Part shown: in pieces, positions 15,001-18,640 of the stretch
How the letters are laid out: each line of letters begins with the position of its first letter
Numbering within the stretch: the stretch's first letter is position 1
Position numbers: made by a program
Virus record (IMG/VR): IMGVR_UViG_2713897055_000006
Length of the DNA stretch: 18,908 bases
Direction: 5' to 3' (one strand)
Source of the DNA: a virus
Lineage: Duplodnaviria > Heunggongvirae > Uroviricota > Caudoviricetes

Positions 15001-18000
15001 GCGGATGTGCTCATGCCTGATTTTCATGAATCAACTCCGATGCATTTGGTGTGTTAGCCTTGAATCCAACAGGTAAGCCGTCGGTTGGATTCGGGTAAAT
15101 ATCAGGCCGGAGTTCATGAGGTGTAACCTCGAAATTCGTTACTTCAGCAACACGTAATGCTTTTTCAGGGCTGAATCTTTCATAGCCCCCCAGCACTCGA
15201 CTTACATGCACCTGAGATAAACCCGTTAGCTTCCCAAACTGTAGCTGGGTGATATGTTTCTCTTTTAAATAGTCTCTTAAGTTCATAGCCAACCTTCTAC
15301 GTTATGCCTCGAGCAAATATTAGTCCCGCTAATTTTAAAGATCAATAGCCAGACTATCTTTGATAATATTGGTAAAACAAATAAACTCTATGTATGAAAA
15401 AAAACACGCGAAGTGATTGCAACTCCAGAAGCGAGCAAGAATTTAAAAGCCGCATGGAATGCAAGAAAAAAAGAGCTGAAGCTGACTCAAGAGCTGGCGG
15501 CTGAGTTGTTGGGATTCGAATCTCAAGGCACCGTTAGCCAGTATCTGAACGGCAAGATACCGGTAAATACCGACGCTGCGCTAAAATTTGCGGCTCTGTT
15601 AAAGGTAAAACCAGAGGACATTCGAGAAGACCTTAAAGACTTAATGAATTATGTAAGATCATCAGATACTTATGATGATAACTTTTCAGGCAAAGGATGG
15701 AGGCTGGTCAATGAAGAACAGGCAGAGTTACTTAACCTCTTCGAGATTCTACCTGCGTCAGAAAAAGCCAAACTCCTTAACCAGCTACGTGGACTAAACA
15801 AGCTCTACGAGGAAGCCTTCGAGAACATGCTGGCACTAAAGAAACGTAACCAGTAGCCACCGCTCACTACCCCATCCACAACAAAAAAACCGACGTCTTA
15901 GTCGGTTTTTTTGTGCCATAACTTCTGCAAATCAGCTGTATAACTAATATTTTTCCCTTGAAAAAACATTTACATAGTTACCAAATCAAAAATATCATAC
16001 GCCATACTGTTGACTTAAAATATCCGCGTTACTAATATTTCTATCAAGAACAGCACGGCGCTGTAGGTTTTAGTTCCGCCACCCGGCGTTAAGGGGAAAT
16101 GAGGTCAGCATGGATACTATCGAGCTTGGCAACAACGAATCTCTGGTGTACGGCGTGTTTCCCAACCAGGACGGCACATTCACCGCGATGACGTATACCA
16201 AAAGCAAAACGTTTAAAACCGAAAATGGTGCCCGTCGCTGGCTGGAAAGAAACTCAGGTGAGTGATATGGATTTCGACACAATCATGGAAAAGGATTACG
16301 AAGAATACTTCGATGGTCTTGCCGAAGGCGAAGAAGCTCTCAGCTTCAGTGAATTTAAACAGGCGCTTTCCAGTTCGGGAAAATCTAACGGCTGATAAGC
16401 GAAACAGCACCGCGAGGAATCAGTATGCAGAAACGAGAACCCGTCATCATCGCGCCAGACTATACCGATGATGAACTTTATGAGTGGATGCGCCAGAAAA
16501 TTAATGCAGTGCAGGATCTGAAATGGGCCAATGAAGCCAGGACTAAGCAGGCTGAAAATCTGTCCGCTCTGGAGCAGGATATCACCAGGCTGGAAAAAGC
16601 AGCGGCATTAAGCATTGCCAGAATGGTTACATACCCACGTTAATAGCTAACCAACGAGGCTAATAATGGAATTTAAAGATTTACCAATGCCATTCCAGGA
16701 AATGGCAGCGAATGTGGTTCGCTCTCAACTGGCGACTCTTGACCTGAGTACTGTAGAAAAGGAAACCATCGATACTATATCCGGTAACGTGCGTCGTGCC
16801 TTTATAGGTCTGTATGAAGAGAAGCGCCTATTCGGCGGACAGAATTCGCCTGAAAACAAGAATCAAGCAAATGATGAGAAGCTGAAACACATTATCGCCT
16901 TACTTTTGGAAGACGCAAAACGTCTACAGCAACTGGAACCAAATGCAGGCACAGAGGCCCGCATTTGGATTGCCATGAAATCACTCAAATGTGAAAGCAG
17001 TGATTATTTCAAAACAACAATTAAAACTACTCAACTTTCGGGAGAGCTACTGAAGAAATTGCCATAAGAGCATGGTCTTTCTCTTGTTCTGCAAGATGAG
17101 CATTAATACCTGGTATGGTTTTTTCAAATTTATCTATCTGTTGAATAACAACTTCGCGGTATACGTTTGTTTTTGTACCACCAAGCGCAGCCGTTAATGC
17201 AGAAAGCATATTTAGTATCATATCAGTGCGATATGAAAGAATCCTGATAGCTTCATCTTGTTTTTCAATAATAGATTGCAGGGCCTCAATTTGCTTTTTA
17301 TCCATTTCACCCTCCTGAGGGTTGGTAATTAAGGAGTTCTCCACGGGTCAGGTGGAGTGCGTGCGCCGGACACGGGTGAGCATCCGGCACTGACAGTTTA
17401 CTGAAAGGATATGTCCCTGAAAAGTCAGGGCATAACGCGAAAGCGCACGGCGAAATTGGTCTCTCTGTACGGTGTCGTTAAATTTAGTTCGACCGTGCGC
17501 TTCCGGTTGTGGCAATCCGCGAAATGGCGCGGCGGTAAGTATGGCGGGGTTATTCCTTCCCCGCTGAGGACACCGGGTTGTCAGGTTGACCATACGCTTA
17601 AGTGACAACCCCGCTGCAACGCCCTCTGTTATCAATTTTCTGGTGACGTTTGGCGGTATCAGTTTTACTCCGTGACTGCTCTGCCGCCCTTTTTAAAGTG
17701 AATTTTGTGATGTGGTGAATGCGGCTGAGCGCACGCGGAACAGTTAAAACCAAAAACAGTGTTATGGGTGGATTCTCTGTATCCGGCGTTAATTGTTAAC
17801 TGGTTAACGTCACCTGGAGGCACCAGGCACTGCATCACAAAATTCATTGTTGAGGACGCGATAATGAAAACGTTATTACCAAACGTTAATACGTCTGAAG
17901 GTTGTTTTGAAATTGGTGTCACTATCAGTAACCCAGTATTTACTGAAGATGCCATTAACAAGAGAAAACAAGAACGGGAGCTATTAAATAAAATATGCAT

Positions 18001-18640
18001 TGTTTCAATGCTGGCTCGTTTACGTCTGATGCCAAAAGGATGTGCACAATGAATTCAGCATTTGTGCTTGTTCTGACAGTTTTTCTTGTTTCCGGAGAGC
18101 CAGTTGATATTGCAGTCAGTGTTCACAGGACAATGCAGGAGTGTATGACTGCAGCAACCGAACAGAAAATTCCCGGTAACTGTTACCCGGTCTATAAAGT
18201 TATTCACCAGGATAATATCGAAATCCCGGCGGGTCTTTAAAACAGTTCCGTAATAAATATCCGGTTTCATTCTTATATGCCAGCAATGGAAGGGATTTGT
18301 TCATCCTTAAATCTGTCATGAGGTTAAAACAAAATGAGTAAAGTCTTTATTTGCGCCGCTATTCCTGACGAACTGGCAACAAGGGAAGAAGGCGCTGTGG
18401 CTGTAGCCACAGCCATTGAAGCTGGCGACGAACGCCGTGCTCGAGCAAAATTTCACTGGCAATTCCTGGAACATTATCCGGCTGCTCAGGACTGCGCTTA
18501 TAAATTTATTGTCTGCGAGGATAAACCTGGCATACCCCGCCCTGCCCTCGATTCATGGGATGCTGAATATATGCAGGAAAACCGCTGGGATGAGGAGTCT
18601 GCTTCTTTTGTCCCGGTTGAGACTGAATCCGATCCGATGA

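Follow-up and report, generated by a model that had tools for sequence, protein, structure and literature searches.

In the Qin prophage of Escherichia coli K-12, the dicBF operon is driven by one promoter, dicBp, and both a terminated ydfABC-dicF transcript and a read-through ydfABC-dicFB-ydfD transcript are made (PMC10448788). RNase III gives a 190-nt form of DicF, a small RNA (sRNA), and RNase E a 53-nt form. The promoter is repressed by DicA, a protein without a RecA cleavage site whose repression is lifted by the antirepressor Rem, and spontaneous, heat and urea induction also occur (PMC10448788). DicB blocks phages that enter via ManYZ, and dicBF operons are on record in several prophages of pathogenic E. 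coli (PMC6832061). Shiga toxin (Stx) phages that carry YdaT beside their repressor gene are classed as Eru8 and Eru11, in an account that does not mention DicA, dicB or YdaS (Fagerlund et al., PMC8951638), and only general statements were found in the literature on Stx phages that carry dicB or DicF or that lack N. Here we describe a Qin-type dicBF operon in the virus record IMGVR_UViG_2713897055_000006, a stretch of 18,908 bases (the window) that is the entire draft contig JNNK01000057.1 of assembly GCA_000749525.1 and that also carries stx2 genes. We consider it likely that the region is the early-left (pL-type) operon of an ompW-integrating lambdoid prophage with the 'PPompW' backbone, working by the mechanism proposed below.

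The dicBF operon and its spacer regions

The original prediction placed DicF, dicB and ydfD downstream of a repressor gene and a pL-like promoter. All of these elements were found, in the following arrangement:

15394-15856 (+): repressor with a helix-turn-helix (HTH) domain only, 153 aa in relatives; the start is shifted by an extra A at 15397, and the open reading frame (ORF) as read is 15413-15856
15881-15914 (bidirectional): terminator after the repressor gene, a perfect 14-bp inverted repeat (100% complementary) with flanking A and T runs
15943-15951 and 16031-16039 (+), and inverted at 15316-15324: operator-like 9-mer ACTAATATT, the second copy overlapping the -10 hexamer
16010-16038 (+): pL/dicBp-like sigma-70 promoter, TTGACT-17-TAATAT, from a promoter scan
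16110-16265 (+): ydfA (DUF1391), 50/51 aa (98%) identical to K-12
16267-16395 (+): ydfB, 94% amino acid identity to K-12
16425-16643 (+): ydfC, 68/72 aa (94%) identical to K-12
16666-17067 (+): 133-aa ORF that is not in Qin (PHROG 1363, E 3e-45)
17027-17305 (-): 92-aa ORF antisense to the operon (PHROG 18692, E 6e-63), annotated in RefSeq relatives
17320-17636 (+): DicF precursor region, 97.8% identical to Qin
17637-17689 (+): the sRNA DicF, including its terminator hairpin, and then five U in a row
17690-17863 (+): conserved DicF-dicB spacer, predicted to form a long-range helix of ~19 bp around two hairpins
17864-18052 (+): dicB, cell-division inhibitor of 62 aa (Pfam, NCBIfam and K-12 identity)
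18049-18240 (+): ydfD (DUF1482), 63 aa, annotated in K-12 as a lysis protein
18334-18757 (+): 5' part of a ydfE/RecE-like exonuclease gene (PHROG 2082, E 4e-103)

Over 17637-17689, 53 of 53 nt were identical to dicF of K-12 MG1655. The Rfam DicF model (RF00039) matched 17638-17689(+) over its full length (1-52/52) with 76.7 bits, against a gathering score of 48 (E 1e-15), and the predicted fold, with 15 unpaired nucleotides at the 5' end, a hairpin of -15.9 kcal/mol and then UUUUU, was that of K-12 DicF. The 62-aa protein was identical to K-12 DicB at every residue (62/62) and matched both Pfam PF05358 (136.8 bits, cutoff 27, E 1.9e-40) and NCBIfam NF049927 (CellDivInhibDicB; 132.8 bits, cutoff 100). 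The 63-aa protein was identical to K-12 YdfD at 62/63 residues and matched Pfam DUF1482 (PF07358; 88.1 bits, cutoff 25, E 3.5e-25). The ATG of ydfD at 18049 overlaps the dicB stop, the same as in K-12.

At the DNA level, the window was 96.1% identical to Qin over 16072-16663 and 97.8% identical over 17320-18757. The Qin order ydfA-ydfB-ydfC-dicF-dicB-ydfD-ydfE is kept on one strand behind one promoter. The exonuclease gene is cut at 18757, where the matches to Qin and to the relative L001 both end. In an alignment with Qin and four other prophages, the promoter position matched that of the Qin dicB promoter, and a promoter-like -35 was present there in Qin and in the STEC383 prophage. The leader before ydfA was strongly conserved in the same alignment, and the operator region varied with immunity type. 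By coordinate transfer from Qin, the RNase III site that gives the 190-nt DicF would map to about 17503. At the level of sequence, these results confirmed a Qin-type dicBF operon far beyond chance. Two details of the original prediction needed correction: the start of dicB is at 17864, and synteny with Qin is interrupted by a 656-bp insertion at 16664-17319.

The insertion lies between ydfC and the DicF precursor and contains both the 133-aa ORF and the convergent 92-aa ORF, which overlap by 41 nt. AGGAGG precedes the ATG of the 92-aa ORF by 7 nt. Both ORFs fall in PHROG families without a functional assignment, and neither had a Pfam, NCBIfam or PADLOC match that would point to a function. 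Stx2a prophages at potC carry another antisense ORF at the position of the insertion. With different antisense ORFs at one spot, this site seems to be a hot spot for insertions.

The predicted long-range helix of the DicF-dicB spacer would be a plausible RNase III substrate. Against the Rfam STnc100 model, whose gathering score is 47, the spacer scored only 34.4 bits at 17687-17896(+) (E 5e-5). Sub-threshold matches were also found at L005 33433-33650, L007 29446-29595 and L024 5078-5276, overall with 31-34 bits and E ~1e-4 to 1e-5. No compensatory base changes were seen in an RNAalifold consensus of the spacer, the sequences being too conserved, and the promoter scan gave no promoter-like plus-strand site between DicF and dicB that could serve as a second promoter for dicB.

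The same interval is altered in several relatives. A Rha-family regulator gene and C4 and isrK-type RNAs lie between DicF and dicB in some of them (L001 26048-26902, L007 29626-30480), and in NCCP15648 a Rha insertion before dicB leaves a duplicated partial dicB. In the Stx2a prophage of RM10466 (L005, about 33400-33440), DicF itself is shortened: its 5' arm UUUCUGGUGA is kept, a short GGCGG/CCGCC hairpin stands in place of the full stem-loop, and the element is missed by Rfam even at E up to 1.

Proposed repressor control and transcription without N

The repressor matched Pfam HTH_3 only and is without an S24 peptidase domain. It aligned with the NCBIfam DicA model over its full length with 35 bits, below the cutoff of 101, and tblastn gave no match between the window and K-12 DicA or DicC, which indicates that the immunity specificity differs from that of Qin. 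The 9-mer ACTAATATT occurs in exactly three exact copies in the window, all of them in the two promoter regions. The cro/repressor intergenic region, which holds the inverted copy at 15316-15324, has a second inverted copy at 15365-15373 that differs at one position, and an imperfect inverted similarity of 34 nt links this intergenic region with the promoter region at 16010-16038. The shared motifs would fit a single repressor that controls both promoter regions, as DicA does in Qin. Two further genes may bear on this control:

15011-15292 (-): Cro/DicC analogue with a YdaS-type HTH (Pfam YdaS_toxin and HTH_3; PHROG 35, E 5e-26), the first gene of the rightward operon
6035-6205 (-): Rem-family ORF of 57 aa, candidate antirepressor, which follows a terminator at 6358-6343 and a promoter-like site at 6318-6289

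The N-terminal 26 aa of the Rem-like ORF are 73% identical to K-12 Rem, with ~24 internal residues missing, and the ORF is identical at 56/57 residues to a protein with a precomputed match to Pfam Rem (PF27490). It heads a run of genes that ends in the late antiterminator gene Q.

In the mechanism that we propose, the HTH-only repressor, distantly related to DicA and lacking a RecA-cleavable domain, would bind the shared operator motifs at the cro/repressor promoters and at 16010-16038 and would thus keep the operon off in the lysogen. Once the repressor is inactivated, transcription would start near 16045. By analogy with Qin, the most likely trigger would be the Rem-family antirepressor, or else a spontaneous or stress-driven flip between repressor and Cro, rather than RecA cleavage. 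The transcript would run through ydfA, ydfB, ydfC and the 133-aa ORF. RNase III and RNase E would then release DicF and, as in Qin, part of the transcription would stop at the DicF hairpin and part would read through, free of N, to dicB and ydfD. Since the products are identical or nearly identical to those of K-12, the same activities are expected: DicF would repress ftsZ and other mRNAs, DicB would block division via MinC as well as ManYZ-dependent phage DNA entry, and YdfD would be lytic on overexpression. As stx2a lies downstream of Q on this contig, an induced cell would make DicF, DicB and YdfD before the Q-dependent Stx2/late transcript. Co-expression of the dicBF products with Stx2 on induction is a reasonable inference, and the DicF and DicB that induced prophages would make could contribute to filamentation.

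According to the original prediction, the operon carries DicF, dicB and ydfD instead of an N gene. N is indeed absent. The first gene after the promoter is ydfA, and no ORF from the promoter to the contig end matched an N family in Pfam, PHROG or NCBIfam. Nor was an N gene found just outside the window: complete relatives run from the exonuclease gene through xis, int and the attachment site to ompW or potC, and no N-family match was obtained up to int. N was lacking in every relative examined with a YdaS/YdaT-type early region, and an arginine-rich N-like motif was not found. In a search for nut elements, boxA (YGCTCTTWA, at most one mismatch) gave 10 hits in the window against 14.6 expected, none exact and none in the leaders. 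Likewise, a sequence search with the HK022 immunity region, whose annotation is without put features, showed no similarity to the early leaders that would point to put. What did not hold was the notion of a replacement for N. The cell-division inhibitor at the corresponding place in lambda is Kil, and DicF and DicB, which occupy this division-inhibitor position, are better seen as an analogue of Kil than as a substitute for N.

The absence of N had also made the passage of terminators by early transcripts appear puzzling. For Qin this is largely answered by N-independent read-through (PMC10448788): both Qin transcripts are seen, and part of the transcription must therefore pass the DicF terminator without N. 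On the rightward strand, two canonical intrinsic terminators were identified between pR and Q, at 8197-8180 and 6358-6343. They follow inserted cassettes, a hok/sok module and an RmrT/RmrA-like pair, respectively. The promoter-like site at 6318-6289(-) precedes the rem-like ORF, DUF968, RusA and Q, which suggests that Q may be reached from its own promoter instead of by antitermination from pR; we put this forward as a hypothesis.

The locus resembles the lambda pL operon (N, then cIII, kil and recombination genes) in being a leftward early operon beside the repressor gene with a division inhibitor, recombination functions, xis and int (an analogy is also drawn in PMC6832061 and PMC10448788). 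It differs from lambda in that the window is without N or nut, the repressor is not RecA-cleavable, and the inhibitors are an sRNA and DicB rather than Kil.

Probable linkage of dicBF to stx2 and competing explanations

The operon had been described as the left arm of an Stx2 prophage. This was borne out at the level of the prophage family by closed genomes; in the source strain it depends on a single join that may be chimeric, and there the linkage between stx2 and dicB is probable, not proven. The remaining genes of the window, and the DNA at its right end, are as follows:

189-458 (-): stx2B, Stx2a-like ORF
470-1429 (-): stx2A, Stx2a-like ORF
1524-1772 (-): three tRNA genes
1813-2871 (-): DNA methylase gene
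3446-4268 (-): late antiterminator Q of the 273-aa type, split by an extra T at 3896
RusA and DUF968 genes (-), in the run from the rem-like ORF toward Q
replication genes (-): lambda-P-like gene and an O analogue with a DnaT domain
YdaT gene (-), frameshifted in the window
18758-18908 (+): rpmB (3' part) running into the beginning of rpmG, which is unrelated chromosomal DNA, from alignment with K-12 rpmB-rpmG, joined with a 4-bp microhomology (GAAG)

The stx2AB genes lie downstream of Q and the tRNA genes, and the lysis genes lie beyond the contig. An intact Q homologue in L001 matched Pfam Antiterm (PF03589, E 2e-49).

Six closed genomes were sampled from 15 that carry stx2 next to this type of Q. 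Both dicB and DUF1482 were present in the left arm, with no N, in five of the six:

RM10466, RM7190 and 00-3076: Stx2a prophages at potC
2012EL-2448: Stx2b prophage
STEC383: Stx2e prophage at ompW with the full ydfABC, DicF, dicB, ydfD series

The layout in these genomes is stx2, tRNAs, methylase, the 273-aa Q, RusA and DUF968, then P, the DnaT-like O, YdaT and the Cro analogue, and it continues with the repressor, ydfA, dicB, DUF1482, exonuclease, xis and int. Rfam DicF was detected in two of the four prophages scanned (77 and 61 bits); at the gathering score it was not found in the other two, RM10466, which has the shortened DicF, and 00-3076. In closed genomes, dicB within Stx2 prophages already has a RefSeq annotation. 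A subset of Stx2 prophages (YdaT-bearing; Eru8/Eru11) uses a DicA-like HTH-only repressor and is without N, and the induction of such prophages, and hence toxin release, may not follow the model of RecA/CI cleavage. In a phage collection of 50,697 records, DicB was found in 20, none of which was a stand-alone Stx phage genome, suggesting that the Stx-phage literature has barely covered this group. Five of the DicB records are labelled 'Stx2a-converting'; in these a PPompW prophage is included as well, and it is this part that encodes DicB.

Several observations weigh against the interpretation favoured here. The window showed 16 gap openings relative to NCCP15648, a relative that is 99.3% identical, and seven of these were an extra base in an A or T run. 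Homopolymer indels interrupt the genes for Q and YdaT, the RmrA/RmrT-like pair and the start of the repressor gene. Single-base length differences were located at 3896, 6872, 7368, 7693, 14961 and 15397 (also at 15883, 17559 and 17838), and as nearly all of them are in A/T or C runs, sequencing error is suggested rather than pseudogenes. The junction between the exonuclease gene and rpmB (18757/18758) was found in 0 of 5,426 complete E. coli genomes. A real rearrangement is unlikely, since it would cut short rpmB, which encodes ribosomal protein L28, and the right contig end is probably chimeric. At the other end, the first 3000 bases were 99% identical to annotated Stx2a-converting phages. 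The window is Stx2a-phage-like (99% to LC567837) over 1 to about 2600 and PPompW-like from about 2700, and the switch at about 2600-2700 falls inside a methylase gene that is common to very many prophages. The switch arose either by natural recombination or by a collapse in the assembly, and the two would look alike. The composite was present in no complete genome, the best coverage being 91%. Within the operon, the antisense 92-aa ORF could hinder the transcription that reaches DicF and dicB. LexA boxes (CTGT-N8-ACAG) gave 10 hits in the window against 5.9 expected; the two exact ones fall within coding sequence, and no hit was close to the early promoters or to the Rem-like ORF. It is the homopolymer frameshifts, the chimeric-looking end and the crossover in a repeated methylase gene that limit the linkage in the source strain to a probable one.

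An assembly chimera would account for several of these points, and we regard it as a rather unlikely alternative. Under this explanation, the stx2 segment (1 to about 2650) comes from a conventional Stx2a phage elsewhere in the genome, the dicBF operon belongs to a separate, non-Stx prophage of the PPompW type, and the two were joined via the methylase repeat. The exact methylase protein occurs in hundreds of prophage contigs, the opposite contig end carries the implausible rpmB junction, and the homopolymer errors indicate a draft of low quality. About 100 complete genomes have non-Stx prophages with ~99% identity to most of the window, none with the composite, and several records contain both an Stx2a phage and, in the same orientation, a PPompW prophage, a layout that would invite collapse. 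Against a chimera, closed genomes prove that stx2 occurs in this backbone together with dicB, including the Stx2e prophage at ompW with ydfABC, DicF, dicB and ydfD, and on the backbone side 16 kb of the contig run without a break; a real hybrid formed by homologous recombination at the methylase repeat would have the same sequence. A look-up of the exact methylase protein was also tried as a test of the hybrid join and was set aside, because this protein, common in non-Stx prophages, has no discriminating power.

The frameshifts also bear on whether the prophage is defective. Taken at face value, those in Q, the repressor start and other genes would make it defective like Qin, and the contig has a truncated exonuclease gene and lacks xis and int. 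In that case the dicBF operon would be a host-domesticated module, with roles in the control of division, in regulating virulence (DicF) and in excluding superinfecting phages (DicB), and not an early operon of productive Stx2 phage induction. The Qin operon works in exactly such a domesticated way. We consider this unlikely for the window, as the frameshifts are nearly all homopolymer single-base changes relative to a 99.3%-identical relative, typical of sequencing error, the exonuclease truncation coincides with the chimeric-looking junction, and functional phages with a dicBF module exist (mEp460_ev081 and Tritos). Equally doubtful is the proposition that the window represents an inducible Stx2a phage with a DicA/DicC/Rem-type switch, in which a repressor that is not RecA-cleavable is relieved by an antirepressor or by stress, N is absent, and DicF and DicB are genuine early functions. 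If it were true, Stx2 release in such strains would respond to signals other than those of the SOS paradigm, the toxin phage would add a copy of a virulence-regulating sRNA, and the STnc100-like spacer could be a processing or read-through element shared by this phage group. Much less probable still is an unrecognised antitermination device in place of N, on which read-through at the DicF terminator and at the terminators before Q would depend; it could be a protein, for instance YdfC or the product of the 133-aa ORF, or an RNA acting in cis, for instance the conserved leader or else the STnc100-like spacer. In its favour, intrinsic terminators stand before Q and, at DicF, before dicB, and a conserved, structured spacer is found after DicF in every relative and ahead of kil in phage 75/02. 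The negative searches for an arginine-rich motif, boxA and put similarity argue against it, as does the lack of compensatory changes in the spacer. In Qin, both Plac-driven and native transcripts reach dicB with no such factor required, and the promoter-like site past the last terminator could alone drive the genes from the rem-like ORF through Q.

Relatives and further elements of the window

The locus shares with Qin the gene order, the promoter position after the repressor gene and the conserved leader and DicF precursor. It differs from Qin in the immunity type of the repressor and Cro analogue and in the added 656-bp insertion, and it lies in a prophage that has retained its replication genes as well as Q, with stx2a on the same contig. 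Among the PPompW-type prophages (NCCP15648 and the LC5678xx records), NCCP15648 was 99.3% identical over 1556-17846, covering the genes from the methylase through Q, replication and immunity to DicF. These prophages are without stx, whereas the first ~2600 bases of the window (stx2AB, a third tRNA and part of the methylase gene) are Stx2a-phage-like. The closed Stx2 prophages of Shiga toxin-producing E. coli were 79-94% identical to the window and have other immunity alleles, for the most part other integration sites, and other left-arm inserts (RelBE, Rha and other antisense ORFs).

A partial likeness was also found in the Shigella phage 75/02 Stx (Stx1, Eru4 type), in which a DicF-like stretch (75.6% identical) and an STnc100-like spacer stand directly before a division-inhibitor gene. 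The inhibitor gene there is kil instead of dicB, the phage has a different repressor and a different replication module, and the DicF-like stretch had no Rfam DicF score at E up to 1.

For basic biology the locus adds little. DicF, DicB, YdfD, their operon, the DicA/Rem control and N-independent transcription are known from Qin, and with the operon and its N-free working already described there, the operon found here is correct but ordinary. The exact composite has not been described; every component and the mechanism have.

Other elements were identified at the stx2 end and in the nin region. An STnc100 sRNA element (68 bits) lies at 1-114(-), directly 3' of stx2B, and is cut by the contig end; related Stx2 prophages have complete STnc100 copies at the same place. 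In the nin region, a hok/sok type I toxin-antitoxin module was found at 8266-8591(-) (Rfam sok, 117 bits), followed by the terminator at 8197-8180. Further along, about 6363-8100(-), lies the gene for a protein with HTH and M78-peptidase domains (367 aa in relatives) that matched the PADLOC RmrA model (E 6e-105), and its 216-aa partner matched the PADLOC RmrT model (E 5e-25). Judged by these matches, the RmrA/RmrT-like pair, which is frameshifted in this contig, would be an anti-phage defence cassette of the toxin-antitoxin type.

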